From assembly GCA_041650735.1 (NCBI GenBank), contig JBAZKP010000003.1, positions 25,823-89,822 of the forward strand: a stretch of 64,000 bases of DNA, given 5' to 3'. The notes below the pieces were generated by a model, which saw nothing but the letters and a program-made list of their open reading frames with translations, did not search any database and was not told the DNA's origin. Every line of letters starts with the position of its first letter. Positions within the stretch are counted from its first letter, which is position 1. This document shows positions 6,087-61,098 of the stretch, in pieces. A program made the position numbers and the translations under genes. The stretch is from an archaeon. Its GTDB lineage: Archaea; Iainarchaeota; Iainarchaeia; Iainarchaeales; JAAZKV01.

Positions 6087-7160
6087 TTATGGTGGGGGGA
6101 GGGCTGCAACGACTTCCATTTCCACAGTCAGATTTGCATTTGTATCAGCAATTACTGCATCGCTAAGAGTTGTATAATATCCTTCTTTAACAAAAGTGCA
6201 TGTGTGAGTGCCGTTAAAAAAATTCCTGTTCATATCCCCATTAACCCCACTATTAGTATCAACTTTAGGCGGCCAGCCTAGTGAATTTAAATCATATTGG
6301 CCAGTGCAATAAGCCTTAACATTACTCAAAGGAGTAACCGTGCCTTTTTCATATATTTGAATAAAAGCCGTGTACCATGGGCGGAACATTGTAACAACAT
6401 AAGGTTTAGCATTTAAATCAGGAACCACTACAGACAAAGTGCTGCTAGTATAGCCACTTTTATAAAAAACACAGGAATAATCTCCAACATTAAAATCAAT
6501 AACAAAATAAGAAACCTGGGTATTCAAATCGTAAGCATTCACATTACAATCCATATTAACATCAATCAAATGAGCTGATGAATTAAAATCAATAACATTA
6601 AAAGTAAGACTTGCTTGGTAAGCCCACAAAAAAGGATCTGATTCGGGCAAAACAACTTCATTAAAATTAACTGAGGTTACTTCTTGGACGCAATCAACTG
6701 ATACAGTAACAGGGAACTGCCTTGGCACCCCTGATTCGGATTTAGCATAAATAATAACCTCACATGATTTTTGTCTACCAATAAATCCTTCACAGGAGCA
6801 CCCGGAACTAACATTGCTTATAGAAAAAATTTTTTCGCTCCCGGGAAGCATTACTGTATCAATATAATTAGTATCCACCCCGTTTACTCTAATTCTGGTA
6901 ATAATCAAATCTTCATTTGAATTATTGCCAAGCCCCACTAATCCATTTCCCTGGTAATCAATAACTGTTCCATCAATACCAATAACTCCTGAAGAGGAAC
7001 TAATTCTTGGGCCTGTAGTATTTACATTAGTGAATAAAAAACCAAATGAAGAAGAAAACAAAACAGTAATTATGAGTGCTATCACTATGATTACACTTAA
7101 AATAATCAAATATTCTATTGTCCCTTGGGCTTTGAAATTCAAAAAATATTTTTTCATCAT
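6087..7160 (-). CDS. Class III signal peptide (archaeal type IV pilin-like) protein with C-terminal beta-sandwich repeats
   Basis: 'FKAQGTIEYLIILSVIIVIALI' fits the class III signal pattern ((K/R)(G/A)|Q.(S/T).E...L). It is followed by a ~110-aa domain shared with the ORFs at 7193, 19592 and 26627 ('GNGLVGL', 'CSCEGF..C', 'SVDC'). Confidence 0.85.
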   Translation of the reverse strand: MMKKYFLNFKAQGTIEYLIILSVIIVIALIITVLFSSSFGFLFTNVNTTGPRISSSSGVIGIDGTVIDYQGNGLVGLGNNSNEDLIITRIRVNGVDTNYIDTVMLPGSEKIFSISNVSSGCSCEGFIGRQKSCEVIIYAKSESGVPRQFPVTVSVDCVQEVTSVNFNEVVLPESDPFLWAYQASLTFNVIDFNSSAHLIDVNMDCNVNAYDLNTQVSYFVIDFNVGDYSCVFYKSGYTSSTLSVVVPDLNAKPYVVTMFRPWYTAFIQIYEKGTVTPLSNVKAYCTGQYDLNSLGWPPKVDTNSGVNGDMNRNFFNGTHTCTFVKEGYYTTLSDAVIADTNANLTVEMEVVAALPPP

Positions 7161-7192
7161 AAATGCAATATTAATATAATCCGAAATATTTT

Positions 7193-9559
7193 TTATGGAT
7201 TATGGCAATCGCTTGGAGTAATTGTACCATCCGCTCCACTTGGCGTTCCTGTTCCGCCTGTTACTGTTACAGCTGGTTTTGGTGTTGGGCAAATATCAAA
7301 AGTAACATTTCCTCCGTTTCCTCCAGCTACAGAAGAATTTCCTCCGACTGCTGTTATTGTTGTAACTAATTGAATATTATTCAAAATTGCTGTTCCTCCG
7401 TTTCCGCCTGCTCCTCCTGCTCCCCCTGAACCGCCGTTTCCTCCGGAGAAAATTATTGTGGTTGCATTTGAATCAGTAAGTGTTAGTGTTCCTCCAGCAT
7501 TTCCATCAGCTCCTAAAAGCCCGCTGACTCCATCTCCTCCTTTTCCGCCATATAATGAGATTGTTGTTGCTGAAGAATCCTCCATATTAATATTTCCACC
7601 TAAGCCCGCTAATCCTCCTGCAGATCCGCCTGACCATTCGCAATACCCTGAAGCTGGTGCTCCCATTCCTCCATAATTAGAAACTGCATTTACAATAGAG
7701 CGTATTATTACAATGTTTCCTCCATCTCCTCCATTTCCATTATGGTTTGTACCAAAACAATATCCTCCTTGGCCTCCGTAAGCACTTATGTCTCCTGTCA
7801 AGGTTGAATCAGTTAAGTATACATTTCCTCCCATTCCACCATCTTTGCTATCAGCGCCTTCTCCTCCGTAATTAATTATGTGTCTTGCACTAGAATTAGT
7901 TAGTTCAACAATTCCTCCGTCCCCATTTTTTCCAAGGCTGTTCCATCCGTTTGCTGCACCATAGCCTCTGCTAGTTATATCTCTTGCAGTTGAATTTGTC
8001 AGGGTAACATGCCCTCCTTTACCCATTGTTTTGGCTCCTCTCGCTTCGGGGTATCCATCCAAATAATGTATGCTTGGAGAAACATCTATGTCATTAATAT
8101 TTGAATTATACACATTCACGTCTCCTCCGTCTCCGCCATAAGTCATTGGTGCGCCATCTCCATCAGCCAGCCCCATATATCCTCCTTTTGAATTAATCGT
8201 CCCTGTAACATTTGAATCAATTATTGTAATGTTTCCGCCATTGCCCCCATTGTTTGGAGAATAAATTCCTACTCCACCCCAAGCAGTAATGTTCACAATA
8301 GTGGAATTAATTACTTGAATATCTCCTCCATCAAACGCATTGCCAACCTCATTATTTCCTCCTTCTGCCAAAATTGATTCAGTTACTGTGCAGTTTCTTA
8401 CAGCGAGATTTGTGTAAGCATTTCCTGTTGAATTAGAAGCATTCACATTCCCTGTTATTGTATATTCGTTTCCGTAAATTGTAACATTATTTGCAGTAAC
8501 CGTTAAGCATTCTCCGCCTGCACCCATATCATTGTCTAAAATATAATTCCCATCAGCAACATCAAGAGTATTACAATCAGAGAGGTGTATGTGGCTAATC
8601 GATGGTTCTAAATAAATATCTAGGGATTTATTGCTGTCAACAATTATTTCGCTTGTATTTGAATCATAATCTGTTTTTGAGAAAACGCATGAATAAGAGC
8701 CTGAATTGAAATCAATTGATACAGGGGAATTCTGGTCAGCTAAATCATAATCATCAACATTACAATCAACACCCACATTGCTTAAATCTTCATAAGAAAA
8801 AGAATCTTTTAAATTCAAAACAACTTTATGAATTTCTGGTATAATCCAAGGATTAAGATAAATATCCATGGATTTGTTGCTGTCAGCAATTATTATAACA
8901 GCATTTGAATCATAACCTGATTTGGAAAAATTACAGTAATAATCCCCTATGCCAAAATTAATGCTGAAAGGAGAATCCTCTCCTGTTGTATCATAATCAT
9001 CTACATTACAATCCACGCTAATATCAGATAAGTGCTCTGCGGAATTAGAATCAAGAACATTAAATGAAATATTCATAATTTCAGCATTGACCTCAGGCTG
9101 GACAGCAACTATACTGCCTGCTAATTGTGCTTCTTCAACACAATCCACTGAAATTGTTGTAACAAATTGTTTTTCTAAACCATATTCTGATTCTGCATAA
9201 AAAACAACTTCACAATCTTTTTTCTCACCAACAAAACCAACACAAGAACATTCTTCATTCAACCCATTTAAAGAAAAATATTTTTCTTCTCCTTGGGACA
9301 TAATAACATCTTCATAATTCATGTCCACTCCGCCGACACTAACCTTTGTAAAAATCAATAATGCCCCTGAATTATTTACTAATCCAACTAACCCGTTTCC
9401 GTCAACATCAACAACAGCTTCTGAAATACTAATCATTCCTGAAGAAGAGCCCAAATTCTTTGAACCTACAGAAACATTTTGGAAAAAAGGTTCTCCTAAT
9501 AAAGAAACCAAACTAACAACAACTAAACCCACTATAACAATAATGGCAACAGTAACCAA
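7193..9559 (-). CDS. Class III signal peptide pilin-like protein with two tandem beta-sandwich repeats and a Gly-rich beta-helix-like C-terminal region
   Basis: The track ORF starts at the TTG at 9559, which lies inside the signal-peptide motif. The frame stays open upstream to 9595 and encodes G V I L R A Q G T I E Y L, so the true start is probably upstream and non-canonical (see finding). It shares the pilin-like domain with 6087-7160 and sits 32 nt upstream of it. Confidence 0.85.
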   Translation of the reverse strand: MVTVAIIVIVGLVVVSLVSLLGEPFFQNVSVGSKNLGSSSGMISISEAVVDVDGNGLVGLVNNSGALLIFTKVSVGGVDMNYEDVIMSQGEEKYFSLNGLNEECSCVGFVGEKKDCEVVFYAESEYGLEKQFVTTISVDCVEEAQLAGSIVAVQPEVNAEIMNISFNVLDSNSAEHLSDISVDCNVDDYDTTGEDSPFSINFGIGDYYCNFSKSGYDSNAVIIIADSNKSMDIYLNPWIIPEIHKVVLNLKDSFSYEDLSNVGVDCNVDDYDLADQNSPVSIDFNSGSYSCVFSKTDYDSNTSEIIVDSNKSLDIYLEPSISHIHLSDCNTLDVADGNYILDNDMGAGGECLTVTANNVTIYGNEYTITGNVNASNSTGNAYTNLAVRNCTVTESILAEGGNNEVGNAFDGGDIQVINSTIVNITAWGGVGIYSPNNGGNGGNITIIDSNVTGTINSKGGYMGLADGDGAPMTYGGDGGDVNVYNSNINDIDVSPSIHYLDGYPEARGAKTMGKGGHVTLTNSTARDITSRGYGAANGWNSLGKNGDGGIVELTNSSARHIINYGGEGADSKDGGMGGNVYLTDSTLTGDISAYGGQGGYCFGTNHNGNGGDGGNIVIIRSIVNAVSNYGGMGAPASGYCEWSGGSAGGLAGLGGNINMEDSSATTISLYGGKGGDGVSGLLGADGNAGGTLTLTDSNATTIIFSGGNGGSGGAGGAGGNGGTAILNNIQLVTTITAVGGNSSVAGGNGGNVTFDICPTPKPAVTVTGGTGTPSGADGTITPSDCHNP
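8600..9090 (-). repeat. Two tandem 246-nt (82-aa) coding repeats inside the 788-aa pilin-like gene
   Basis: The units are offset by 246 nt (compare 'gatttattgctgtcaacaattatt' at 8625 with 'gatttgttgctgtcagcaattatt' at 8871). The protein units are '..VDCNVDDYD....SP.SI.F..G.Y.C.FSK..YDSN......DSNKS.DIYL.P'. Confidence 0.65.
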
Positions 9560-9629
9560 GTATTCAATTGTACCTTGAGCTCTCAGAATAACACCCTAAA
9601 ATAGAATATACAATTTACTCTAACTTAAC

Positions 9630-9662: not shown

Positions 9663-10415
9663 TTATAATTGTATTTTTGAGAATGAGTAGCTTCCTATCC
9701 AAAGGAATATTGATGTGACAATTATCAAAATCATTAAATCAAATGGCAATCCGAATTGTGAATTTCCTGTTAGTGCTGCCCTTAACCCATCAACTCCATA
9801 AGTGAGGGGATTGAATTTTGTTATCAACCCTAATGGTTCCGGCAGCCCATCTAACGGGAATAATGCCCCTGATAGGAAAAACATCGGCATCATCAAAAAA
9901 TTCATTATTAATTGGAACCCGTGCATGTCTTCCATCCATGAAGCTATTGCTGTCCCGAATGCTGTGAAGAGGAGCGCGATTAAAAACATTATTAGTATTG
10001 CAACTGGTATCATCCAAATGTTTCCAATGGCAAAACCAAATATCATTGAGATTATTAGCACAAGGAGTCCTTGGAATACTGATACTGTTGCTCCTCCAAG
10101 GGTTCTGCCTATCATTATTTTTATTCTTGGCACTGGTGCAACAAGTGTTTCTTTCAAGAATCCGAATTGTCTGTCCCAAATTACCTCTATTCCGTTAAAC
10201 ATTGCTGTAAACAAAATCGTCATTGCAATTATTCCCGGTATAATGAAATCCAAATAATTTCCGCCCCCCGCTTTAGCAAATATTGGTCCAAAACCAAATC
10301 CGAATGCTAACAAAAATAAGAGGGGCTGTCCTAGTGAACCAATTATTCTTGATTTTGACCGAAAGTATTTCTTTACCTGTCTTAGCCACAAAATGTACAC
10401 TGATTTTATTTCCAT
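9663..10415 (-). CDS. ABC-2 type transporter permease
   Basis: Six-TM protein. 'ILWLRQVKKYFRSKSRIIGSLGQPLLFLLAFGFG' is a typical ABC-2 N-terminus. It is adjacent to the cognate ATPase. The ATG at 10415 lies inside the TTG-started track ORF. Confidence 0.8.
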   Translation of the reverse strand: MEIKSVYILWLRQVKKYFRSKSRIIGSLGQPLLFLLAFGFGFGPIFAKAGGGNYLDFIIPGIIAMTILFTAMFNGIEVIWDRQFGFLKETLVAPVPRIKIMIGRTLGGATVSVFQGLLVLIISMIFGFAIGNIWMIPVAILIMFLIALLFTAFGTAIASWMEDMHGFQLIMNFLMMPMFFLSGALFPLDGLPEPLGLITKFNPLTYGVDGLRAALTGNSQFGLPFDLMILIIVTSIFLWIGSYSFSKIQL

Positions 10416-10518
10416 AACCGCACCATTAACCAAAAAATTATTTTCTTACCCCAAGTTCCTTTTAACCAATTTTATCATTCAAGTTCTTTCTAACCTACAA
10501 TTCAACTAAATTTCCTAA

Positions 10519-11310
10519 TTATCTTCTCATCCTCATTCTCATTTCTTTACTAATCATTTCCGCTTCTTGTGCTCTTATTTGGTGTCCTGTGAGTTTTATG
10601 AATGCATCTTCAAGTGATTTTGATTTAGTTTGTTTTTTGAGTGTGCTTGCTGTTCCTTCTGCAACTATTTTTCCATAATCTATTACCGCAATCCTGTCAG
10701 CCACTCTTTGTGCTTCTTCCATGTAATGTGTGGTAAAGAAAACCGTTATTCCTTCTTTTTTGTTTAGTTCTTTTATGTACCCCCATATGTGGTTTCTTGT
10801 TTGCGGATCAAGCCCTATTGTTGGTTCATCAAGGAAAAGTATTTTTGGGTGATGAAGTAATCCTCTTGCTATTTCTAGTCTTCTTTTCATTCCGCCTGAA
10901 AATGTTTTCACTAAATCATTTTTTCTTTCCCATAATTCTGTTATTTTCATTAATTGTTCAATCCTTTCTTTCCTCAATTCTTTTGGCACCTGATATAATA
11001 TTCCATGAAAATCCATGTTTTCGTATGCTGTCAAATCATCATCCAAACTTGGGTCTTGAAAAATTATTCCAAAGCTTTTCCTTGCATTCTCTGAATTAGT
11101 TGAGGGATTAAACCCATTTAGGATTACTTTTCCTTTTGTTGGGTGAAGCAGTGTTGTAAGTATTTTTATGGTTGTTGATTTGCCAGCCCCATTTGGCCCA
11201 AGGAAAGCAAATATTTCTCCTTTTTTCACTGAAAAAGAAATTCCATCCACTGCTTTTATTTCTCCAAAGTGCTTGGATAAATTCCTTACTGTAATAATAT
11301 TTTCGACCAT
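10519..11310 (-). CDS. ABC transporter ATP-binding protein (DrrA/ABC-2 exporter type)
   Basis: Walker A 'GPNGAGKST', signature 'SGGMKRRLEIA', Walker B 'ILFLDEPT' and the H-loop 'TTHYMEEA'. Confidence 0.92.
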   Translation of the reverse strand: MVENIITVRNLSKHFGEIKAVDGISFSVKKGEIFAFLGPNGAGKSTTIKILTTLLHPTKGKVILNGFNPSTNSENARKSFGIIFQDPSLDDDLTAYENMDFHGILYQVPKELRKERIEQLMKITELWERKNDLVKTFSGGMKRRLEIARGLLHHPKILFLDEPTIGLDPQTRNHIWGYIKELNKKEGITVFFTTHYMEEAQRVADRIAVIDYGKIVAEGTASTLKKQTKSKSLEDAFIKLTGHQIRAQEAEMISKEMRMRMRR

Positions 11311-11458
11311 GAGTTACTCATTTATGAATAGATTAAAAAAGCCACCATTTTTAATTTGATTTTACTTGGTTTTAGCATTTTTGTACCCCTAAATTTGATT
11401 TTGTTTTTTTCCGCAATTCTTTTAACTCTATCTCTTGACAAAATTGTTCCTGGTGAGC

Positions 11459-13996
11459 ATGAATTTTCTTTACAAAGGCCCTGAGCTTAGGGCTTGGCAG
11501 GTTGAAGCTATTGATGCTTGGGAAAAGCATCATATTGGAATTATTCAGGCTGTGCCTGGTGCGGGAAAAACTATTCTTGCGGTAAGAATGCTTACTTCCA
11601 AACTCGAACAGGAAGAGAATCTAAAAGTGCTTATTGTTTGTCCCCGTTTAACTCTTATCCAGCAATGGGTGGATTCTATTACTGAGTATTCAAATATTAA
11701 GAGGAATGAAATTTATGAAGTTTCAAGTAATAATGAATCAAAAGCTTATGTTTGTGCACAGAACAAGTTGCAGCATTACAAGGTTTTTATCTCCACTTTC
11801 CACCAGATAAAACAATTCTTCAATGAATGCAAATGGAAGGACCATAATTGGTTCCTTATTGTGGATGAGATGCATAACACTACTGAAAATTACAAGTTCC
11901 CTAATGCTCCAATAAAGTACAAGCTTGGTTTATCCGCAACTCCTAAAAAGAAAGGAAGGGATGCTGATTTTAATTTAGGGGGAATTGTTTACACTTATGC
12001 TTTTTCCCAAGCTTTGCAGGACAAAATAATTCTTGATCCTGTTATCAAAATTGTTTTTTACTCTGTGAATAAACAATTGTTCAAAAAAATCCAGAATGAA
12101 AGCGATGCTACTAGTGATTTAGTTGAAAGTGCTTATGATGATTTTTTACCTGATGAGGGTATGGATGAAGTTGAAAAAATAATGTTCCATCAGGAAAAGC
12201 CTAAGCTTGTTAAGAGCTCAAAAAATGTTGAGGAAGAGATTCAAGAAGGCTTAGAGGAAGTGCAAAACGAGGAAGCGGATGTCTTTACCTCAAAGAGCAC
12301 TGATTTTGTTGGTATCCAACGTATCCTTGAAGACCAATTCAAGATTGGCAAAAAAAATAGTGTTCAAACTCTTGTGTTCGTTAACAGGATAAAGAAAGCT
12401 GATTTGCTGAACAGGATGCTTGCGGAAAAGTTTTCTGAGAAAGTTTCCCATTCGTACCATTCAAAATCAGAGAAATATAATCAGAAAAACAATTTCAATA
12501 AACTAAAACAACAATTTGCTGAAGGAAACTTTAATGTACTTATTTCGGTTGGCACTCTCGGAGAAGGTATTGATTTTCCTTATGCTTCCCACGGTATTAT
12601 TGCCAGCCCTATATACAATCCCACTTCTTTTGTTCAAAAGGTTGGAAGGCTTTTGCGTTCTTACAAGGATCACAAAAAAGCGGTTATTTACTATTATGTC
12701 CCTTCTGAATTAATTACTCGTCTTCTCACTGATGAAAAAATTGAGCCTAATTATTTCAAATCCATAATAAAAATTGCTGATGAGAATAAGGATTTGTATT
12801 TTGTTGACAGAAAGTCTCTGAAAGAAGAACCTGGTTCTCTTGCTGATTTGCTTATCCAAGGTGCTGCTTATGAGAGAAACGAGGATATTAAGCGAATAAA
12901 GATTCCTTATGACCTTGATTCAATAATGCGTTTCTTTAAGCGCGTTTATCCTGAGAACCTTAAGGATTGGAAAAAATTTTACATTAATCAGATAGAAGAG
13001 AAGGAGAATAAGGAAAAGAAGAAAAAGAAAACTATTGCAGAGGTTGATGAAAAACCTCAAGAGCCAAAAGTGCAGAAAGAAATTGATTTTACTCCTTTGC
13101 GTAATGAGCTTGCAAAGAACCATTTACTGGTTCTTTCTTCCGCAAAATCTTTAAAATCTAATCTCCAGAGTATTGAGATTATTCAGAAAAAGTTTTTGGA
13201 CAGAAAATTCAAGGATTTTGGAAATGTAAAAGCTTTTGTAAAGGAAGGGTTGAAACAGAAAATCATTACAAAAATAAAGTATGGCCATGAGCTTGAAAAA
13301 ATTGCTTCTGATGAAAAATCAATTCTTTCCCTTTCTGAACAAGAAATGCTTGCAAACATGGTGTCTGCGGAGCTCTATGATTTTTGTTCAAAACAAAAGG
13401 ATTTGAAAAAAGTGCTTGTTTCAATTTCTTCCTCTATTTTTCTTCTTGAAAAGCATTCTGAAGAAAAGCATGCCTCTGTAGGGGTAGTTAATGAGCGTAT
13501 TAGTGCTATGAATAGGGTTGCAAAATCTTTTTTTGATCTCCAGTCTCTTTTCCTTGATGAGCTTGATTTATCTGATTTGGCTAAGAGCATTACCAGTGAT
13601 GAAAAAAAGTTTTTCTTAATAATAGGAAAGGATATTTTCCTAACCAAGCAACTTGCACGCAAATTCTCTTATCCCGAGGATTTTGGGTTGAGCAGGTGGA
13701 GGGAAGAAAAAGAAGCCCCTGTTGTTGTAATCACTCTTTCCCCTGTTGAAAAGTTTTGCAAGCGATTAATGTTTCTTATGAATGAGCAGGAACAAGGTAA
13801 AGGGAATTATTCAGGTTTATTGCATAATTGGGGTATTTTGAAGGAAAGTATTTGCTCTGAACTTAAGATTCCTATTCAAAAAGACGAGGAGATTTTGAAG
13901 GAACTTGAGAGGCATAAGTTTGAGAAAGAATTTTCCTTTGAAAAACTCTTTTTTGTATCAGAAACTGTTAAGGCATTTAGAACAAAATCCTTTTGA
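11459..13996 (+). CDS. Superfamily-2 helicase (ResIII/XPB-like core) with a ~400-aa uncharacterised C-terminal extension
   Basis: Motif I 'AVPGAGKT', motif II 'VDEMH', motif III 'SATP' and motif VI 'QKVGRLLR'. The K/E-rich C-terminal half has no recognisable domain. The track start at 11435 is TTG and the first ATG is at 11459. Confidence 0.8.
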   Translation: MNFLYKGPELRAWQVEAIDAWEKHHIGIIQAVPGAGKTILAVRMLTSKLEQEENLKVLIVCPRLTLIQQWVDSITEYSNIKRNEIYEVSSNNESKAYVCAQNKLQHYKVFISTFHQIKQFFNECKWKDHNWFLIVDEMHNTTENYKFPNAPIKYKLGLSATPKKKGRDADFNLGGIVYTYAFSQALQDKIILDPVIKIVFYSVNKQLFKKIQNESDATSDLVESAYDDFLPDEGMDEVEKIMFHQEKPKLVKSSKNVEEEIQEGLEEVQNEEADVFTSKSTDFVGIQRILEDQFKIGKKNSVQTLVFVNRIKKADLLNRMLAEKFSEKVSHSYHSKSEKYNQKNNFNKLKQQFAEGNFNVLISVGTLGEGIDFPYASHGIIASPIYNPTSFVQKVGRLLRSYKDHKKAVIYYYVPSELITRLLTDEKIEPNYFKSIIKIADENKDLYFVDRKSLKEEPGSLADLLIQGAAYERNEDIKRIKIPYDLDSIMRFFKRVYPENLKDWKKFYINQIEEKENKEKKKKKTIAEVDEKPQEPKVQKEIDFTPLRNELAKNHLLVLSSAKSLKSNLQSIEIIQKKFLDRKFKDFGNVKAFVKEGLKQKIITKIKYGHELEKIASDEKSILSLSEQEMLANMVSAELYDFCSKQKDLKKVLVSISSSIFLLEKHSEEKHASVGVVNERISAMNRVAKSFFDLQSLFLDELDLSDLAKSITSDEKKFFLIIGKDIFLTKQLARKFSYPEDFGLSRWREEKEAPVVVITLSPVEKFCKRLMFLMNEQEQGKGNYSGLLHNWGILKESICSELKIPIQKDEEILKELERHKFEKEFSFEKLFFVSETVKAFRTKSF

Positions 13997-14091
13997 GAAT
14001 ACTTGTGATAAAAAAACTTTTGAAGGAATTAATTTCTAAGTGTTCAGCATTACCCTTTTATTCTGTTTCAATTGCTATTGCTTGGGTTGGA

Positions 14092-15543
14092 ATGAAACAT
14101 TTTTGTGGGATTTGTGGGGCAAGTTTTCCTGATTATGGTGCTGAGCTTGCGTTATATCAAATGCTTTTGCAGATGCAGCACAGGGGCCAGCTTTCTGCAG
14201 GAATAACTGTTTTGAAAGAAAATGAACCTTTTCTTTTGCGTACCCATAAGAATCTTGGATTAGTGAATAATGTTTTTCATGCTGAGCATAAGGGAAAGTT
14301 TTCTTCCATTATGCAAAAATTTTCTTCAAGGAAAGGAATTGGACATGTAAGGTATGCTACTTGTGGGGCTGATGATGTTGAATATGCTCAGCCGGTTGAA
14401 CATTTTCATGGTTTGAAAAACAGGTGGTTTTCTCTTGCTTTCAACGGAAACATTGCTAATTATCCTAAAATAAAATCCTCTCTTGAGGAAAAAAATTATC
14501 ATTTTGTTAGAGAAAATGACACTGAAGCAATAATGCTTTTGCTTTCAAAATCACTTAAGGAAAAGGAAACCATTGTTGGGGCTTTTTCTAATTTAGCAGG
14601 AATCCTTGATGGGGCTTATTGTCTTTCTTTTATGAATGCTGAAGGAACTCTTGTTGGGGCGCGTGATCCTCTCGGGTTAAGGCCTTTGTGTTATGCTGAA
14701 AAAGAAGGCAAAGTTGCTTTTGCTTCTGAAAGTATTGCTTTGCAATCCATTGGTTTTGAAGAAATTCATGATATTGAACCTGGAAAAATGCTTATTCAGG
14801 AAAAGGATTCTTTTAGGATTGAGGAATTTGCAAAAAGTGAGAGAAGAGCTCATTGTTTTTTTGAGTGGGTTTATTTTGCACACGCTGCCTCAAAAATTGA
14901 GGGGAAACTTGTGTATGAGGTTCGGTATGCGCTTGGAAAAGAACTTGCTAAACAGGAAAAACAAAATATTGACAAAAATTGTGTTGTTGTTGCTGTACCT
15001 GATTCAAGTACTCCTGCTGGAAATGGTTTTGCTGAAGCACTTGGCATTCCACTAAGAGAAGGATTAATCAGGAACAGGTATGTTGGTAGAACATTTATTG
15101 AAGCAAAGGACAGAGCTGAGAGAGTTAAAAGCAAATTTTCTCTGATTAAGGAAGTTTTTGCAGGAAAAAAAGTTTTTTTAATTGAGGATAGTATTGTGCG
15201 CGGAACCACTTTGAAGAGCCTTGTGAGTTTTATCAAAAAATTTGGTTCGCCAAAAGAAATTCATGTAAGGGTTTCCTGTCCCCCTATTCTTTCGCCTTGT
15301 TTTTATGGAATTGATATGAGCACTAAAAAAGAACTTATTGCTGCTGAATTGGGCGCTGATGAATCTACAATTGCAAAAGAACTTGGGGTTGATTCTCTTT
15401 CTTACCAAACAATTTCTGGCCTGATTAATGCACTCGGATTAAAAGAAAAAAATCTTTGCTTAGCTTGTTTGAATGGAGATTATCCAACCCAAGCCGGAAA
15501 AGAAAATGCTTTAAATGATTCCGGCACTGGAAGGAAATGCTAA
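14092..15543 (+). CDS. purF: Amidophosphoribosyltransferase
   Basis: 'MKHF|CGICG' gives the N-terminal nucleophile Cys after a short propeptide. Also 'GHVRYATCG', the PRPP motif 'VFLIEDSIVRGTT' and the C-terminal Cys cluster 'CLACLNGDYP'. The track ORF start at 13993 (TTG) adds an implausible leader. Confidence 0.9.
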   Translation: MKHFCGICGASFPDYGAELALYQMLLQMQHRGQLSAGITVLKENEPFLLRTHKNLGLVNNVFHAEHKGKFSSIMQKFSSRKGIGHVRYATCGADDVEYAQPVEHFHGLKNRWFSLAFNGNIANYPKIKSSLEEKNYHFVRENDTEAIMLLLSKSLKEKETIVGAFSNLAGILDGAYCLSFMNAEGTLVGARDPLGLRPLCYAEKEGKVAFASESIALQSIGFEEIHDIEPGKMLIQEKDSFRIEEFAKSERRAHCFFEWVYFAHAASKIEGKLVYEVRYALGKELAKQEKQNIDKNCVVVAVPDSSTPAGNGFAEALGIPLREGLIRNRYVGRTFIEAKDRAERVKSKFSLIKEVFAGKKVFLIEDSIVRGTTLKSLVSFIKKFGSPKEIHVRVSCPPILSPCFYGIDMSTKKELIAAELGADESTIAKELGVDSLSYQTISGLINALGLKEKNLCLACLNGDYPTQAGKENALNDSGTGRKC

Positions 15544-15722
15544 TTGTAAATTACTTTTCAAGTTCTCTATTTTTTATAACCGGAAGCGTTGAGTGTTTTG
15601 GGGTATTTCTTCCACTATTTTTTTTTCATTAGAAACTGATTTCTAGTGAACAAAAACCCTTTCTTCCGCTAAGCACAAATTTTAAAAAAATAGAAGAAAA
15701 TCAAGTTAAAAGAAGAAAAATA

Positions 15723-15764
15723 GTCCGCCCAACCCCAAGACTTTTTCTTGGTTGTTAGACGGAC
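15723..15764. other. Imperfect GC-enriched long hairpin in the purF-hxlR spacer
   Basis: gtccgcccaaccccaaga-ctttt-tcttggttgttagacggac. The outer stem is gtccg/cggac and the inner stem is ccaaga/tcttgg. It could be a terminator or a small RNA element. Confidence 0.25.
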
Positions 15765-15817
15765 CTTTGCAATTTCTAAGAATTAGCTGTGTGAGGAGTT
15801 AATTCCCTTAAGGTACT

Positions 15818-15985
15818 CTAATAATGTTCCGTACCGATTTTTTCATTAGTAGCTCTTACCCAGTTAGCTAGAGTATTGTTTTCCAATATCTCTACCATTA
15901 CTTGATCCAGGTAAAAGTTATGACTCCTCTTCTGAGTCACAGCCTCTTCTCCTTTAACGAATCTCATCCAGTTCATACTAACCAT
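15818..15985 (-). CDS. Possible small ORF (55 aa), divergent from the HxlR regulator
   Basis: Read by eye: MVSMNWMRFVKGEEAVTQKRSHNFYLDQVMVEILENNTLANWVRATNEKIGTEHY. It has non-repetitive composition and lies in a 513-nt gap. No family recognised. Confidence 0.3.
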   Translation of the reverse strand: MVSMNWMRFVKGEEAVTQKRSHNFYLDQVMVEILENNTLANWVRATNEKIGTEHY

Positions 15986-16077
15986 TACACTCAAACTATA
16001 TTTAAATAAGTAGCTTTAAAAAGATTACTAGCTATACATTATATAGTTATTTCATTTTGGCAAAGAGATTGATTTTA

Positions 16078-16383
16078 ATGAATAAAAAGAGTGAAAAACC
16101 CAATCCATTGGACAAGGCTCTGCATCTTGTTGGTAAAAAATATGATCTCCTAATTCTTGATTCAATTATGCTTCATAATAAACGTTTAGGATTTAATCAA
16201 ATCCTAAAAGATATTTCGGGGATTAATCCGCGTATCCTTTCAATCCGATTGAAGAATCTTGAAGCTAACAGGCTCATTACTAAGAGCCTTGTTCTGGGCA
16301 CCCCTGTAAAAACCGAGTATGCTTTAACCCCAAAAGCAGAGGAACTCATCGAAATAATTGAAAAGCTCAAAGCATGGGCATAA
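16078..16383 (+). CDS. HxlR-family winged-helix transcriptional regulator
   Basis: 'LHLVGKKYDLLILDSIM...LGFNQILKDISGINPRILSIRLKNLEANRLITK...EYALTPKAEEL' follows the HxlR pattern. The ATG at 16078 lies inside the TTG-started track ORF. Confidence 0.8.
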   Translation: MNKKSEKPNPLDKALHLVGKKYDLLILDSIMLHNKRLGFNQILKDISGINPRILSIRLKNLEANRLITKSLVLGTPVKTEYALTPKAEELIEIIEKLKAWA

Positions 16384-16465
16384 GAATAAACTATTTCCAA
16401 AAGAAAAAGATTTTTCTTAAATTTTTTAGTATGTTTTTTATACCCCCTTGTACTAAATTATAATT

Positions 16466-16711
16466 ATGGCAAGATTTTTTTCCAAAATGAGAACCTTTTT
16501 TTCATTTTCAAGGGCAAAACCCTCAAAAATCCGGAAAGGATCTAATCCCGAACTTAAAGCATTTATGATTTCAAAGGGCTTTCGTAATGGAGAGTTGCCT
16601 AACAACTTTTCCCCAGTAACTTATGAAAAATACAAAGCTGCTTATAACTCTTTTTTGGCAGAACAGGCACTTAAGCAAGTTAAAGAAAGAAATCAACTTC
16701 CCAAACAATAA
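16466..16711 (+). CDS. Hypothetical small basic protein
   Basis: 81-aa ORF with no recognisable motif. Confidence 0.4.
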   Translation: MARFFSKMRTFFSFSRAKPSKIRKGSNPELKAFMISKGFRNGELPNNFSPVTYEKYKAAYNSFLAEQALKQVKERNQLPKQ

Positions 16712-16805
16712 TTCTAAACGAACCTTTTCACAAACAGTTACATTTTGAACTATTACCCCTTTGAGCCAAGATTAAGTTTATTTACCTCTTTGCTGTTATT
16801 AAGTC

Positions 16806-17468
16806 ATGCGCTTTTCAAGGAACTATCCAAAGAACAGAACCTATTTTTCCAAAAGAAAAATATTGTCTGTAAATCAGGCGATTTTTTTTATTTTTGAGGA
16901 AGCAATCCTTCTCCTGCTCATGGTAATACAATTATACAAGATTTTGGGTGTAGAGTTTGTGGATAAAACAATCCTATTTTTTCAATTCCCTTTTGGAGTT
17001 CAAAACATTTTATGGCTTTTCAGTACAATAGCCTTTTTCCTAATTGGTTATGTTGTTATTGCTGTTAGGGATGAAACTGTTTCAAATATTCACCGAAATT
17101 TTTCTAAAGTATTTTTTGGGGCAGCAAAACAAAAGGTTTCCAATTTAAATAAAGAAGTAATAATTTTTGTTTTTGGGGAAATTGTTTTTGCAACAGTTAT
17201 CGCAATAAGCATTTTCCTTTACCTGGACCCTGAAATCAACATTGTCCCTTTTCCAATGAATATCATTAGCTTTGCTTTTTTCCTGGGAATTAGTTTGTTA
17301 TTGTTTTCTCACACAAAACAGTTCCGTGGGCTTGTTTACGGACCGACTCCTTTGCAGAAAAAGATTCATGAAGGAAAGCATGAGGTAAAGCGTTTCACTA
17401 ACCCAAAAACAGGTTCAATTAGAATAGTTCCGAAGAAAAATTATTCAAAAAACAGATTCTTTAAATAA
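16806..17468 (+). CDS. Hypothetical polytopic membrane protein
   Basis: 220-aa ORF with about five hydrophobic helices and a basic C-terminus. Confidence 0.55.
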   Translation: MRFSRNYPKNRTYFSKRKILSVNQAIFFIFEEAILLLLMVIQLYKILGVEFVDKTILFFQFPFGVQNILWLFSTIAFFLIGYVVIAVRDETVSNIHRNFSKVFFGAAKQKVSNLNKEVIIFVFGEIVFATVIAISIFLYLDPEINIVPFPMNIISFAFFLGISLLLFSHTKQFRGLVYGPTPLQKKIHEGKHEVKRFTNPKTGSIRIVPKKNYSKNRFFK

Positions 17469-17491
17469 TAGTGATTTACAAAGGTTTTTCA

Positions 17492-18850
17492 ATGGCTAAT
17501 CAATTAGAAAGAAGTATTTCTTTTTCACAAGCCATTATTTATGGGCTTGGAGTAATTATTGGGGCAGGAATTTACACTCTTATAGGAGTTGGAGCTGGAA
17601 TTGCCGGACCAGCATTATGGATTTCTTTTATTATTGCAGCAGTAATTGCTTATTTTACTGCTCTTTCATATGCCGAGCTTTCATCAAGATTTCCGAAAGA
17701 CGGGGCAGAAAGTGTTTATGTTTTCAAAGCCTTTAATAATAAAGCACTTGCTTTTTTTATTGGTTTTCTTCTAATAATAGTTTGGACTGTTTCTTCAGCA
17801 ACCGTTGCGTGGGGTTTTGCTGCTTATTTCAAAATTTTTTTCCCAATTGCTCCTCTTATCACAGTAATTGCTTTAATTATTATTCTTAGCGCAATTAATT
17901 CTCTTGGAATACAATTAAGCGTTAAAATTAATGCTGTTTTAACTCTCATCACAATTCTTGGTTTATTATTAGTAATTCTTTTTGGTTTAAGGTTTATTGG
18001 CTCAGTTAATCTTTTTGAAGGGATTAATGGAGAAAACTTGTTTGAAAACTCTTTTTCCTTAATCCCAAGTTTGTTTTCTGCAGCTGCTTTGATTTTTTTT
18101 GCTTACCTTGGTTTTGAGGGATTAGCAAACATTTCAGAGGAAACCAAGAATGCGCGAAAAAATATTCCAAAAGCAATTCTTTTTTCCTTAAGTGCAGCAA
18201 CAATTATTTATGTAGCAGTTGCTATTGTTTCTGTTAGTGTTATTGCTCCTGCTCAACTCGCTTTAGCAGCTAACGCAAACATTTCTATCACTCAAGGCCC
18301 TTTAGCGCTTGTTGCAGAAAATGCCATTGCCCCGGGAGCAGGTTTTGTTTTGAGTCTTATTGCTCTTTGTGCTACCGCTAGTACCTTAATTGTTTTACTC
18401 AATGTTTCAAGCAGAATATTATACGGACTTGCTGAACAAAAATTGTTTCCAAAAATTTTTTCCGAAATTAATCCTAAAACAAAAACTCCTCTCTTTGCAG
18501 TCATTCTCTCTGGATTACTTGGGATTGGTTTTACTTTTGTAGGAAACATTGAGTTGCTTGGAAAATTTGCTACCATGGGGACTTTTTTATTGTTTTTTGC
18601 AATTAATTCTTCATTAATAGCAGTCAAGCATAAAGAAATTTCTTTGAAAAATCTGGAGCACCCTTTTGATTTGGAACGCCTTTCTTTACCAGCCTTATTT
18701 GGAGCAATTTTTTGTTTATTTATGTTTCTCACTGAGTACTGGGAACCAATTTATTTCCTTGGCTTCTCAATCCCCCTAATAGGAATAGGGTTAATTTTGT
18801 TTCTTTTTTCAATTCCTTTTTACTATTTATTTACCAAAAAGTATTTTTAA
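17492..18850 (+). CDS. APC-superfamily amino acid permease
   Basis: About 12 TM. 'SFSQAIIYGLGVIIGAGIYTLIG' is the typical APC helix-1 G-rich motif. The ATG at 17492 lies inside the GTG-started track ORF. Confidence 0.85.
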   Translation: MANQLERSISFSQAIIYGLGVIIGAGIYTLIGVGAGIAGPALWISFIIAAVIAYFTALSYAELSSRFPKDGAESVYVFKAFNNKALAFFIGFLLIIVWTVSSATVAWGFAAYFKIFFPIAPLITVIALIIILSAINSLGIQLSVKINAVLTLITILGLLLVILFGLRFIGSVNLFEGINGENLFENSFSLIPSLFSAAALIFFAYLGFEGLANISEETKNARKNIPKAILFSLSAATIIYVAVAIVSVSVIAPAQLALAANANISITQGPLALVAENAIAPGAGFVLSLIALCATASTLIVLLNVSSRILYGLAEQKLFPKIFSEINPKTKTPLFAVILSGLLGIGFTFVGNIELLGKFATMGTFLLFFAINSSLIAVKHKEISLKNLEHPFDLERLSLPALFGAIFCLFMFLTEYWEPIYFLGFSIPLIGIGLILFLFSIPFYYLFTKKYF

Positions 18851-18962
18851 CCTAAAATTAAGAACAAGAAATGTCTCTCTAATTAATGCTTCTGATTTTC
18901 CATAAACAGTGGACTAATACTTGGTTATAACACTTATTCAGCTAATTTGTTGAACCAAAAAA

Positions 18963-19591: not shown

Positions 19592-22500
19592 TTATTGCGC
19601 ATACCCTATATTAACATCTTTTAGTGTTGGCGAAGCATTTGTTTTTATATCAGCCTCTTGATGAGCAGCAACTCCTTCAGTCCAGGTGCATCCAGGTAAA
19701 GCCGCACATGCTGTTGAACTTGTTTGTGAAGAACATAATAATGTCCCTGTACAAGACCATTCCTCATAGTAAGTGCATATACCCACACTTTGGCACGCAT
19801 TAGGATCATAATAATAAGGAAAACACCAACTCATAGGGTCTTCATAACAAGTCACTCCATCCCACCAACAACCAACATTAGACATACATGTACTTTCATC
19901 AAGAATTGCTTCACAACCATAACCACAACCACCCCAACAATTAGGCGTACACTCCTGCATCGAAAGTTGTAAAGCACAATTACCGCCCCAATAATCATAA
20001 GAAGCACAACAACCAGGATCCCACGGAGCGCACATCCATTCACAATAAGGCCACTCTGAATTTCCACTACATCCAGCAACTACCTCAGGCACATCAATGT
20101 AACCTAAAGTATATAATTCAGGTTTCACTAAAAACTGGAAATACCTATTACTTGCTAAACCAGACAAATCAATATCCACACCAGCAGAATAATTTATATC
20201 ACTCCACGAACCATCAGAACAATCCGCATTAGCACAAGACCTATACCCTATCCCTAATTTCGAAGCGCCTTTATTTAATAATTCCTTTACCTCATTTGCA
20301 TCAAGGACACGATTCCAAACAGCAACCTCATCAATCACACCATTAAAATATTGAACATTACTACCTTCAGAACGCCCAATCGTAATTACAGCATCATTAA
20401 GTTGCGGTATTGCACAAACAAGAGAAGCATCAACAACTCCATCCAAATATAAAACAGAAGTACTCCCATCATAAGTCTCAACATAATGATACCATTTGTT
20501 AGTAACCAAATCAGTAGCCCCCCTTGTATTACAATAACCCCACGCAAACAACCTAGTGTCCCCCTCAGCGGTTTGTATAGAAAAATTATCATAATTCCCC
20601 AAATTATTAGGCCCACCTAACATAACAATCGGTGCCTGATCCCCTGGAAGAGCCGTCATTTTAAACCACGCAGAAACCGAAAACACAGGCGGATTACCAC
20701 GCAACCCCAACTGAGACAAAGTTTTAGATGAAGTCAAATAATCAGTACTACCATCAAAATTCTGCGCGTTCAAATCCCACAAACCAGCAGCAGAATCAGG
20801 ACAACTAGAACAAGAAACATTATTCTCATAATTACTAGAATCAGTAAAACTTGTTCCGCTTGTTTCATTCAAATGCCACAAACCAACCAAACCATCATTC
20901 AAATCTTTTTCAATTGCCGGCTCTAACTGTGAACCATACAAATGCCCATTAACATCAACACCATCATTAGAATTAAATTTAATTAAATTATATGAAGCCG
21001 TTTCTGAAGTAGTATCAATCACAGGAGAAATATAATTAGCATCACTTGCGCAACCGCTTAATGATGCACGGGAATTGTAAAGTGCAAGCATTTCATCCGC
21101 AGTAAGCGCTCTGTTCCAAAAAGTAACTTCATCAACTGCTCCATAAAAGCCACCCCACCCTGTTTTTCCAATAAAAGGACCTGAGGTTGAAGTGTTTGTT
21201 GGAGTAGTTGTAACAGTTGTCTGCCAAACTAGTTGCCCATTATAATATCCTTTTGCTACTTGATCTGTCACACTTAAAGTGAATGCTATAAAAACCCAGT
21301 CTCCGAGCTGAAGTGGAGGGTTATCTGGAGTATAACTTCCTCCTGTAACATTAGGATTTATCCCTATTGCATTATTGTGTATAGCATTGAACCATGAAGC
21401 ATTACAACACTCATACTTTCCAAGAAAAGTACCATTCGTCCAGCTAGGATAAGAATCTTCTCTTGCCCACGAGCTCACAGTAACCTCAGAAAGAGTATCA
21501 AGCGCATGCCCAGGCAAATCAGAAGGCAATGTAATATAGGTTCCTCCGTTGAAGTAAAATGCATTACCCACTACCCCTGTTGTTGTAGTAGCCCCACTAT
21601 TTACCCCATCATAATCATTCCCACTCATATCACTTGCATCTGAATCAAGAGGATAATAAGCAATTAAATCAACCATTATGTTTGATAATGCGCCAGAAGC
21701 ACCACAAGTTATTCCTGAATTATTTCCTTTTAAAGAAGTAAAATTGAATGTTCCGCCTGAAAAGTTTTCATCTAAATTAAAGTAAAGATATGAACCTGTT
21801 GTCAATGTATAAAATATTGCCCTATTTCCATCAACAGCACCAACTGTTGTACCGATATTTCCAGAAACATCCACACATGAAACATCCCAGAAATGATTCA
21901 CATCAGGAGTAACCACTAAAAGATTTTGGTCAATAACCACAACCCCTTTTACTGGACTAGAAATAGTGTTAACATCAACCCCATCAATAATGAGTGTACA
22001 ATCACTCAAATTACTATAATCATTTACATCAAAAGTAAAAGAAACGTTGTCTAAAGAAGTAGAAAACCCTGATGCTGGACTGGATAAAGATATAACTGGA
22101 GCAAAATAATCTTGGTCAATCACATAAAAACCAATAGGAGTTATACTAGAGGTACAACTCAACTCTAATTGCCCAAACTGGATTGATTTATCTAAACCAT
22201 TTTCTGAGTTATAAAATACGCTTACCTCATAAATTTTCTTCAATCCATCACAATTAGGAAGTCCTTTTACAAAAAAACTTTTTTTCTCCCCCGGAAACAA
22301 TGTTTCTGAATAATTGTAATCAAAATCATTTACCCTAATACTAGTTACAGTAATTTTTTCACCTAAATTATTTGAAAAAGAAAACAAACCATTCCCATCA
22401 GCACTCACAACAGCCTCAGAAATACTAATTAAATCAGAACTCTGCAAAATTTTTGAAGAAGTAGAAGCAATATTAGTAGAAGAATCCGTTGTCATTGTAA

Positions 22501-22609
22501 CAAAACCAACAACAACTAAAGATAAAACAATAACAACCGCTATACTGACTAAGTATTCAATCGAACCCTGTGCTTTAGATGAAAAAGAAGAGTGTAGCAA
22601 ATTAAACAT
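19592..22609 (-). CDS. Class III signal peptide pilin-like protein with two LamG/concanavalin-like domains and a Cys/Trp-rich C-terminus
   Basis: 'SSKAQGSIEYLVSIAVVIVLSLVVV' is followed by the shared pilin-like domain. Two LamG-type endings are present: 'VDEVTFWNRALTADEMLALYNS' and 'IDEVAVWNRVLDANEVKELLNKG'. The last ~130 aa carry more than 25 Cys and many Trp. Confidence 0.85.
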   Translation of the reverse strand: MFNLLHSSFSSKAQGSIEYLVSIAVVIVLSLVVVGFVTMTTDSSTNIASTSSKILQSSDLISISEAVVSADGNGLFSFSNNLGEKITVTSIRVNDFDYNYSETLFPGEKKSFFVKGLPNCDGLKKIYEVSVFYNSENGLDKSIQFGQLELSCTSSITPIGFYVIDQDYFAPVISLSSPASGFSTSLDNVSFTFDVNDYSNLSDCTLIIDGVDVNTISSPVKGVVVIDQNLLVVTPDVNHFWDVSCVDVSGNIGTTVGAVDGNRAIFYTLTTGSYLYFNLDENFSGGTFNFTSLKGNNSGITCGASGALSNIMVDLIAYYPLDSDASDMSGNDYDGVNSGATTTTGVVGNAFYFNGGTYITLPSDLPGHALDTLSEVTVSSWAREDSYPSWTNGTFLGKYECCNASWFNAIHNNAIGINPNVTGGSYTPDNPPLQLGDWVFIAFTLSVTDQVAKGYYNGQLVWQTTVTTTPTNTSTSGPFIGKTGWGGFYGAVDEVTFWNRALTADEMLALYNSRASLSGCASDANYISPVIDTTSETASYNLIKFNSNDGVDVNGHLYGSQLEPAIEKDLNDGLVGLWHLNETSGTSFTDSSNYENNVSCSSCPDSAAGLWDLNAQNFDGSTDYLTSSKTLSQLGLRGNPPVFSVSAWFKMTALPGDQAPIVMLGGPNNLGNYDNFSIQTAEGDTRLFAWGYCNTRGATDLVTNKWYHYVETYDGSTSVLYLDGVVDASLVCAIPQLNDAVITIGRSEGSNVQYFNGVIDEVAVWNRVLDANEVKELLNKGASKLGIGYRSCANADCSDGSWSDINYSAGVDIDLSGLASNRYFQFLVKPELYTLGYIDVPEVVAGCSGNSEWPYCEWMCAPWDPGCCASYDYWGGNCALQLSMQECTPNCWGGCGYGCEAILDESTCMSNVGCWWDGVTCYEDPMSWCFPYYYDPNACQSVGICTYYEEWSCTGTLLCSSQTSSTACAALPGCTWTEGVAAHQEADIKTNASPTLKDVNIGYAQ

Positions 22610-34273: not shown

Positions 34274-34302
34274 ACAATCCCTTTTTTTTTAATTAATATA
34301 AA

Positions 34303-34620: not shown

Positions 34621-34637
34621 TTGTTACACCAAACTTG

Positions 34638-34922: not shown

Positions 34923-34972
34923 CCTTCCTTTTCTAAATATTATTGTTTTCGGTGATTTATTAATCTACCTTA

Positions 34973-35305: not shown

Positions 35306-35366
35306 TTTTTCACCAATTTCTCGCTTTTTTCATTAATTATTATTCTTTTATTTTAAGCACAAATAT

Positions 35367-43396: not shown

Positions 43397-43475
43397 AGTA
43401 AACACTTACACGTGCAAAAACGATTGTTCCTATAAGAAAAACTGCTTCAAAGTATTTAAATATATACTCGGCAAA

Positions 43476-60991: not shown

Positions 60992-61098
60992 TCCAACCAC
61001 TTAATATCCGTCCCCAATACCACTTATTCACTATAATACTATAATATTCAAGCCTTTATTAATTTAACTTTGCTCTATTTGCCGGAGTTCTTCAATAA

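Follow-up and report, generated by a model that had tools for sequence, protein, structure and literature searches.

Four genes in a 64,000-nucleotide stretch of archaeal DNA (contig JBAZKP010000003.1, positions 25,823 to 89,822; 'the window' below, in whose coordinates positions are given) encode proteins that join one shared N-terminal module to different C-terminal cargos. These proteins, named P1 to P4 for the four open reading frames (ORFs) that carry the module, are probably minor, adhesin-bearing type IV pilins of an Epd/Tad-like filament, an archaeal variant of the modular pilins of bacteria. A first-pass annotation of the window had proposed such an archaeal counterpart. The proposal is supported by the N-terminal signal, by the predicted fold of the module and by cargos that are shuffled among relatives, and the likeness to the bacterial proteins is functional and architectural, not one of homology.

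The window is part of an archaeal chromosome of ~35% G+C that carries PolB, HisRS, HisG, IMPDH and Dus, and P1 to P4 sit among housekeeping genes. Its source is taken to be an Iainarchaeota-like DPANN archaeon because its PolB and the PolB of Ca. Iainarchaeum sp. GCA_050950745.1 share 69% identity and because the two genomes also agree in gene order: giant genes, five small membrane proteins, a 493-aa protein and PolB follow one another in the same order in both.

A class III signal at the N-terminus

In a six-frame scan of the window with the pattern Q[GAS][TSA]xE, the motif (K/R)AQG(T/S)IEYL occurs in coding context exactly four times, each time at one of the four ORFs for which it had first been noticed. 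In every case a short leader ending in Ala is followed by Gln at +1, Glu at +5, Tyr at +6 and a 24-residue hydrophobic stretch. The resemblance extends well past the helix. The first ~150-160 residues of the four proteins align at 31-43% identity to P1 with 27 invariant columns, which include AQG-IEYL, GNGL and two Cys, and by this alignment their similarity is far beyond chance. The common domain was first described as ~110 aa long with a CSC motif; it is indeed homologous in all four proteins and is longer when the N-terminus is counted, and the CSC motif is missing from P3, whose module is the most divergent.

The same signal recurs throughout a larger family. Among 238 members, the residue at -1 is Ala in 198 and Gly in the other 40. 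Leaders are short (median 9 aa), variable and often basic, residues +1 to +24 are nearly invariant (QGTIEYLVIIAVVVVISLVVVGLL), and Q1, G2, E5 and Y6 are conserved in 100%. These residues identify the N-terminus as a class III (prepilin) signal, of DUF361/Epd type. Substrates of the Methanococcus maripaludis peptidase EppA likewise have Q+1 and E+5 (PMC3875500). The pilins of that organism have no Y+6 (PMC3875500), and the invariant Tyr in the P1-P4 family adds the 'xxxxEY' signature of Flp pilins.

Pfam scans place PF04021 (Class_IIIsignal) in P4 at 23.7 bits, which is exactly the cut-off, and in 26 of 90 family members with E-values up to 0.001. The same scans gave no match in P1 to P4 to N_methyl, the bacterial methylation motif (IPR012902). 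By these profiles the four proteins are outside the bacterial IPR012902 set and have an N-terminus of the archaeal PF04021 type. As far as sequence can tell, the module belongs by descent with archaeal PF04021/Epd-type pilins.

The earlier claim of a class III signal is supported by the motif and by the uniform -1 residue (238 of 238), with a PF04021 score just at the cut-off in P4. The competing possibility of a signal peptidase I site was checked as well. The signal is read as class III because the conserved block begins before the hydrophobic stretch, right after the invariant Ala or Gly that closes the short leader, which is the opposite of the pattern at a signal peptidase I site.

An archaeal pilin fold in the shared module

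AlphaFold models of P4 and P2 consist of a helix of 33-42 residues followed by a seven-stranded β-sandwich, with predicted local distance difference test scores (pLDDT) above 90 in the module. When the P4 model is compared with the PDB by Foldseek, the H. salinarum archaellin ranks first (E 1.4e-4) and the S. acidocaldarius Aap pilin and the P. calidifontis pilin come close after. The top four matches of P2 are the pilins of S. islandicus, P. arsenaticum, S. solfataricus and P. calidifontis (E 1.6e-4 to 1.8e-3). Across both queries, the top entries are 9eq7, 8q30, 8fk7, 6nav, 6w8u and 6w8x. Helix and sandwich together are matched in this search only by archaeal filament subunits. Compared with PDB sequences, the family profile also has archaeal pilins as its two best matches (8q30, E 0.0098; 6w8u, E 0.41).

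These models and matches support assigning the archaeal type IV pilin fold to the shared module, with the sandwich as its predicted ordinary globular pilin domain. The original view that the domain is a pilin and not a member of some other family agrees with all three comparisons, in which archaeal pilins or archaellins are the best matches. Structural reading of P4 is limited to its pilin module, as the pLDDT of its cargo is below 50.

One module, many heads

Searching with a profile of the module gives 2,013 cluster representatives (50% identity) with E-values of 0.001 or below, and for 546 of these the E-value is 1e-30 or below. Without exception the module is N-terminal, and the proteins are 161 to over 1000 aa long. 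Of the loci in species-representative genomes, 147 were confirmed, almost all of them in metagenome-assembled genomes (MAGs) named 'archaeon', Ca. (I)ainarchaeum or Ca. Forterrea; the mature proteins of these loci are mostly 400-1400 aa long, and up to about ten family loci were detected per genome. A few contigs with family members carry bacterial MAG names (L083, Ca. Shapirobacteria; L054, Planctomycetales; and that of member P0028 likewise). They most likely reflect binning contamination and not transfer to bacteria.

Cargos differ widely from member to member. Among 90 members, Pfam finds Glug (28), Lcl_C (16), Laminin_G_3 (11), Gly_rich_2 (6) and Flg_new (5), with NHL and other propellers and β-helix domains as further cargos. 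Cargo blocks also recombine between family members. To judge from these domain assignments, the description 'one module, many heads' holds at the scale of the family, and the interchangeability of cargos, first suggested by only four genes, is confirmed by both the variety of heads and the recombining blocks.

The four cargos in the window illustrate this variety. P3 matches Laminin_G_3 in two stretches (E 2.3e-41, best at residues 620-775), and P4 matches Lcl_C, formerly DUF1566 (E 5.6e-11; both Pfam). P1 and P2 were at first thought to share nothing after the module, a statement that has to be withdrawn: BLASTP aligns their cargos at 32% identity over 180 aa (E 4e-22), and both contain two homologous β-sandwich repeats. 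Repeats of this type recur in P0223, P0199 and P0172 and in loci L021, L013 and L084. The second part of the P2 cargo resembles a solenoid, with ~11 turns of ~30-35 residues in a periodic two-strand pattern (AlphaFold; strand pLDDT 80-92, loops poor). This region has no Pfam match and no match among PDB sequences, and it has homologues in other family members.

The inventory of cargos first drawn up (repeats in P1, repeats and a Gly-rich region in P2, two LamG domains and a Cys/Trp-rich region in P3, DUF1566 in P4) stands, apart from an immunoglobulin-like (Ig-like) spacer in P3 that it missed. BLASTP places the same domain at residues ~160-270, directly after the module, in more than 25 family members. 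P3 has 34 Cys in the whole protein, and its Cys/Trp-rich tail, which matches no family, is conserved in locus L035, where a 1095-aa homologue aligns over cargo residues 11-843. Searches of PDB sequences with the P2 and P3 cargos found nothing significant. NCBIfam returned only LamG- or DUF1566-type matches far below threshold, namely TafC (36.6 bits, where the cut-off is 410) and Lsa25.

N-glycosylation sequons occur at 1.5-2.5 per 100 aa in P1 to P4, compared with 0.24-0.47 in cytoplasmic proteins of the window. Such a density fits exposed surface glycoproteins, to the extent that sequons predict them. In all four proteins, as in bacterial modular pilins, a pilin module at the N-terminus is joined to a domain that is not pilus-specific. 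Their domain content supports reading the heads as adhesin- or lectin-type modules, with binding as the predicted activity.

Short paralogues beside assembly genes

The first-pass annotation named the absence of type IV filament machinery from the genome as a ground for giving up its proposal, and on this point related genomes speak for the proposal. The family can be connected to filament assembly through these relatives. In the locus of GCA_050950745.1 (L086), an 844-aa T2SSE ATPase is followed by two T2SSF genes, an unrelated NeuB/DAHP-synthase-like gene and two 149-aa pilins. Downstream of these lie four small pilin-like genes and a gene for a 1631-aa LamG protein that likewise bears a class III signal. 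The 149-aa pilins begin with MNNKA and then QGTIEYLVIIAIVVVIALVVVGLL; by eye, they differ from P4 at three of the first 25 mature residues. Hhalign relates the short pilin to the shared module of P1 to P4 with a probability of 98.6% over 132 columns, extending into the sandwich.

The same layout of ATPase, platform and short-pilin genes is found in the P0109 locus and in L067. In these three genomes, the short paralogues beside the machinery are 149-154 aa long and occupy the classical position of a major pilin. In L067, two modular members are also encoded ~4 kb from the ATPase, and one of them has an Lcl_C cargo, as P4 does. The ATPase is closest to afGspE, FlaI and CpaF. One ATPase with two platform genes is the set ascribed to 'system 1' (Epd-like) of methanogens and DPANN, and also to some DPANN 4A loci (10.64898/2026.04.22.720090). 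Because most modular members are dispersed, it is mainly the short paralogues, together with the shared helix, that tie the family to the machinery.

A second type of ATPase (765-aa T2SSE) lies with an 802-aa polytopic membrane protein directly beside family members of L008, L079, L081 and L017. The 802-aa protein could not be shown to be a platform protein, its only Pfam match being a weak one to DUF2207_C. A possible role is that of a platform protein, divergent or fused, in a second filament system.

The filament loci of relatives also encode class III-signal proteins of other families. In L086 these are found at 13658-18553 and 11310-13582, and in L067 at 15291-18905. Proteins of this kind include the 1631-aa LamG protein (KA↓QSTIES, where the arrow marks the predicted cleavage site), a 1204-aa protein (KA↓QTAVELLLLL) and small ORFs that resemble minor pilins (MDRKG↓QISMEFMV).

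A model for P1 to P4 and its alternatives

From these features we infer how P1 to P4 are cleaved, how they co-assemble, where they reside in the filament and what they bind. They would be made as prepilins with leaders of 3-13 residues. A class III signal peptidase of the EppA/PibD type would cleave after the invariant Ala and expose Gln+1, with Glu+5 and Tyr+6 behind it. The near-invariant hydrophobic helix would at first anchor the protein in the membrane. An Epd/Tad-like machine, with one FlaI/CpaF-like ATPase and two TadB/TadC-like platform proteins, would then load this helix into the core of a filament built mainly of the short (~150 aa) paralogues, which have the same helix. The C-terminal extension would project outward, at the tip or sparsely along the shaft. 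Ig-like or β-sandwich spacers in the extension would be followed by a LamG, Lcl_C/DUF1566 or β-solenoid head, for which glycans or surface proteins of host cells or particles are likely ligands. Several paralogues with shuffled heads could in this way provide one filament system with a repertoire of specificities.

A number of observations weigh against this model. Structural E-values are modest, and the sandwich alone also matches unrelated Ig-like folds at similar scores. PF04021 scores 17.5 bits in P1, under the cut-off, and has no match in P2 or P3. P2 has no ATG, GTG or TTG codon between an in-frame TAG (9596-9598) and the prepilin motif. An assembly ATPase, platform protein or prepilin peptidase is encoded neither in the window nor within 10 kb beyond each end on the same contig, and the first-pass statement to this effect is true of every ORF scanned in the window, where the membrane ORFs of 220 and 167 aa have no GxGD motif. 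A crude filter for polytopic ORFs with GxGD yields no candidate A24-type peptidase in 1.13 Mb of related loci, and no EppA homologue was identified. Only a few modular members have assembly genes nearby, the majority being dispersed. An ATPase in L084 was not counted as a link to machinery, as it stands alone without a platform gene and may be coincidental. Finally, cargos of ~170-850 aa cannot pack along a filament as normal pilins do, which makes the place of P1 to P4 in the filament a conjecture.

Dispersal and bulk also suit the main rival explanation, itself rather unlikely. The class III signal and helix might serve only to process adhesins and to tether or cluster them in a bindosome-like manner, as in the model for sugar-binding proteins of Sulfolobus, perhaps on a short pseudopilus and without a true filament. 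P1 to P4 do lie among housekeeping genes, away from assembly genes, their cargos of up to ~850 aa fit a filament shaft poorly, and archaeal class III-signal binding proteins are widespread and usually encoded outside filament loci (10.64898/2026.04.22.720090). However, the complete pilin sandwich has been retained, and it is homologous to that of short pilins beside ATPase and platform genes. The 24 helix residues are near-invariant across ~2,000 clusters, which suggests a packing constraint beyond membrane anchoring. Retention of the sandwich and conservation of the helix argue against a role in anchoring alone. Pfam also finds no solute-binding-protein domain in P1 to P4, and the adjacent ATP-binding cassette (ABC) genes are of the ABC-2 exporter type, not an importer.

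It is improbable that each long paralogue forms the major subunit of its own thick, domain-decorated pilus, with all such pili made by one machine. Conservation of the helix among paralogues is compatible with this arrangement, as the hydrophobic domain is conserved in Haloferax PilA1-6 (10.64898/2026.04.22.720090), and large major pilins occur in bacteria, for example in M. xanthus. Yet mature proteins of ~310-990 aa are far beyond any known major pilin, the position of major pilin by the machinery is already held by the short paralogues, and spacer domains connect the cargos, an arrangement also seen in tip adhesins such as PilC.

That P1 to P4 are not pilins at all, and instead are Sec-secreted or membrane-anchored surface proteins whose lineage-specific signal-anchor and Ig-like domain resemble pilins superficially, is very improbable: Ig-like sandwiches are ubiquitous (PmoB, SoxY and chaperone-usher proteins are also among the Foldseek matches, with similar E-values) and PF04021 matches are weak, but the conserved block stands on the wrong side of the hydrophobic stretch for a signal peptidase I site, directly after the Ala or Gly of a short basic leader, Q+1, E+5 and Y+6 are pilin hallmarks, the top structural matches over helix and sandwich together are all archaeal filament subunits, and short paralogues adjoin ATPase and platform genes in three genomes.

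Comparison with known systems

Read as minor pilins, P1 to P4 are most readily compared with the modular pilins of Streptococcus sanguinis, PilB with a vWA domain and PilC with an Ig-like and a concanavalin A-like (ConA-like) lectin domain, which are among more than 1,200 modular IPR012902 proteins (PMC8179133; PMC9934059). Both groups combine a class III signal with a small pilin module, in some cases an Ig-like spacer, and a domain that is not pilus-specific, and both include several paralogues with different heads per genome. P3 (pilin, Ig-like, LamG, LamG) mirrors PilC (pilin, Ig-like, ConA-like lectin) domain for domain. In contrast to the bacterial proteins, the module of P1 to P4 is an archaeal β-sandwich and not an α-β roll, with no homology beyond the N-terminal helix, and the leader is a Q+1 Epd/Flp-type one that lacks the N-methylation motif. 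There are also more copies, with at least four in the window and, in the genomes searched, up to ~10 detected loci each. For P1 to P4, a place at the tip and ligand binding are predictions.

Among archaeal systems, the Epd pilins of M. maripaludis (DUF361, PF04021, UPF0333; processed by EppA) share the short leader, Q+1, E+5 and the hydrophobic helix. Their genes too are scattered on the chromosome, and the loci of relatives of P1 to P4 have the corresponding set of one ATPase and two T2SSF proteins. The P1-P4 family differs in that -1 is mostly Ala and not Gly and in that Y+6 is invariant. It also always has the β-sandwich and usually a large cargo, whereas the Epd major pilin has no globular domain. 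Flp pilins of bacterial Tad (type IVc) systems have G/A↓xxxxEY at the processing site, comparable to A/G↓QGTIEY here, and Q+1 is common in Gram-positive Flp. Relatives' loci resemble Tad as well in their two TadB/TadC-like platform proteins and CpaF-like ATPase. Mature Flp is a helical protein of ~50-80 aa with neither globular domain nor cargo, in contrast to the 313-992 aa of mature P1 to P4.

Bindosome proteins of Sulfolobales (GlcS, AraS) also combine a prepilin-type N-terminus with a functional binding domain and are encoded away from assembly genes. They carry solute-binding domains, are found by ABC importers and have no pilin globular domain, unlike P1 to P4 with their full pilin domain and adhesin- or lectin-type modules. 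Large adhesins with class III signals (DUF2341/PilY-like) have been predicted in archaeal type IV pilus loci; they are secreted, have concanavalin-like domains and are associated with Epd-type systems (PMC4858521), features in which P1 to P4 are similar. The 1631-aa LamG protein of L086 is a protein of this kind. Such adhesins are single and locus-encoded, whereas the P1-P4 family is multi-copy and dispersed and has a common pilin module with shuffled heads.

In the searchable literature, no account was found of this DPANN family or of 'modular pilins' in archaea. The published survey of modular pilins covers the bacterial IPR012902 motif only and does not mention archaea (PMC8179133). The 2016 census by Makarova et al. 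does not extend to DPANN genomes; in its text, 'DPANN' and 'Diapherotrites' have 0 occurrences each (PMC4858521). P1 to P4 would extend to archaea, with an unrelated globular pilin module, the strategy of grafting a binding module onto a pilin that is established in bacteria.

Little is known of the way in which DPANN archaea recognize partners or surfaces and attach to them, and cultivable representatives are few. A tentative extension of the model, possible but less secure than the assignment of P1 to P4 themselves, is that the family provides the main host- or substrate-recognition repertoire of Iainarchaeota-type DPANN, with a single Epd/Tad-like filament tipped or studded with interchangeable pilin-adhesin fusions. 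If so, heads such as LamG, DUF1566, Glug, β-solenoid and propellers would be shuffled between lineages like the receptor-binding proteins of phages and would set partner specificity. Type IV filaments would then be a central attachment device in a DPANN lineage, contrary to a groundwater study that reports type IV pilus components to be missing from DPANN genomes (10.1101/2020.05.14.094862). The invariant QGTIEYL helix and pilin sandwich make the family recognizable by sequence, with several copies in genomes of ~1 Mb, and the LamG, DUF1566 and β-solenoid heads are concrete candidates for binding assays.

Gene starts and feature coordinates

The four ORFs exist much as first delimited, with two adjustments to their starts: P2 reaches to ~9589, and P4 most likely begins at 27583. 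All four are on the minus strand (Table 1). For P4 the start at MINKAQG is preferred because the resulting 318-aa form is identical to a database protein (P0001), which is annotated as 'DUF1566 domain-containing protein [archaeon]'. Among the matches to the family profile, P3 itself represents its cluster (as P0148).

P2 is more complicated. The only start candidates ahead of its motif are ATT at 9589 and CTG at 9586, with GGTG 5 nt upstream of the CTG and two in-frame TAG codons close by upstream. Since no canonical start precedes the motif, public gene calls begin P2 at TTG 9559, inside the motif, and the 'QGTIEY' signal is dropped from the database copy. Related genes carry leaders as short as MRA↓QG, MRRA↓QG and MRG↓QG, which makes a leader of 3-4 residues from a non-canonical ATT or CTG start plausible for P2. 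Recoding of TAG as the cause of the missing start was rejected, as TAG closes only two of 41 likely genes; an ATT or CTG start is the simpler reading because of the 3-4 residue leaders of relatives and the GGTG before the CTG. The prepilin signal of P2 is thus lost through the start chosen by gene callers, and other family members are labelled 'hypothetical' or 'DUF1566 domain-containing'.

Table 1. Positions of P1 to P4, their parts and other features (window coordinates unless a locus is named)
Feature	Coordinates	Strand	Length or residues	Basis or remark
P1	6087-7160	-	357 aa	translation
P1 leader	7128-7160	-	MMKKYFLNFKA	
P1 pilin module	6687-7127	-	residues 12-158	PF04021 17.5 bits, alignment
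P1 cargo, two β-sandwich repeats	6090-6686	-	residues 159-357	homologous to P2 residues 165-328
P2	7193 to ~9589	-	~798 aa	
P2 leader, very short	from ATT 9589 or CTG 9586	-	(M)LRA or (M)RA, respectively	
P2 pilin module	9134-9577	-	residues 5-152	AlphaFold: helix 7-39, sandwich 53-150, pLDDT above 90
P2 cargo, overall	7196-9133	-	residues 153-798	
P2 cargo part 1, two ~85-aa β-sandwich repeats	8585-9097	-	residues 165-335	homologous to P1 cargo
P2 cargo part 2, Gly-rich, β-solenoid-like	7196-8557	-	residues 345-798	AlphaFold
P3	19592-22609	-	1005 aa	
P3 leader	22571-22609	-	MFNLLHSSFSSKA	
P3 pilin module	22151-22570	-	residues 14-153	cargo = residues 154-1005
P3 Ig-like spacer	21824-22105	-	~residues 169-262	BLASTP to family members
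P3 two LamG/concanavalin-like domains	20264-21667	-	~residues 315-516 and 574-782	Pfam
P3 C-terminal Cys/Trp-rich region	19673-20083	-	~residues 843-979	sequence
P4	26627-27583	-	318 aa	when started at MINKAQG
P4 leader	27569-27583	-	MINKA	
P4 pilin module	27134-27568	-	residues 6-150	PF04021 23.7 bits; AlphaFold: helix 8-49, sandwich 53-151
P4 cargo, Lcl_C/DUF1566	26636-26968	-	residues 206-316	Pfam 5.6e-11
493-aa protein	31770-33251	-	493 aa	no family; 55% identical in L005
Five small polytopic membrane ORFs	33929-35804	-		then 493-aa protein, PolB
Giant ORF	35861-43405	-		
Giant ORF	44318-52939	-		
Giant ORF	53729-61000	-		
Polytopic membrane protein	L008 5009-7417		802 aa	
Polytopic membrane protein	L017 2390-4720			same protein as in L008
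Polytopic membrane protein	L081 12780-15152			same protein as in L008

Neighbouring genes

An ABC ATPase and an ABC-2 permease are encoded at 9663-11310 (minus strand), 73 bp upstream of P2-P1 and on the same strand. The ABC/ABC-2 pair is arranged in the same way with pilin genes in a related MAG (L035 4832-6469, 69-74% identity). Its position beside P2-P1 is probably a matter of synteny, and co-transcription with the pilin genes is possible. A functional link of the family to this exporter, or to an M24 peptidase by P4, was considered and set aside; both neighbours are conserved in relatives, and this is read as synteny between close genomes.

A cluster of surface-protein genes occupies 31770-61000 (minus strand) and continues past 64000, with its order conserved in Ca. 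Iainarchaeum (L005). The three giant ORFs of the cluster, and a 2948-aa ORF that runs off the end of the window, all begin with '..EKWYSF.D..IP.F' and a membrane helix. In L005 a member of the pilin family (P0035) lies between the giants and the small membrane genes.

At 61099-62541 (minus strand), between two giants, lies a 480-aa ORF whose N-terminus resembles that of a pilin, MKKFVKVKA↓FSEHGFNMFSAIVAIILIMVGVV. Neither Pfam nor NCBIfam matches it, and it is not similar to the QGTIEYL family. A pair of small ORFs (139 and 87 aa) that overlap each other also lies between giants, at 43476-44142 (minus strand). The first begins with MKFIIDSNILFSAII and could be a PIN-domain toxin, and the pair may be a toxin-antitoxin system.

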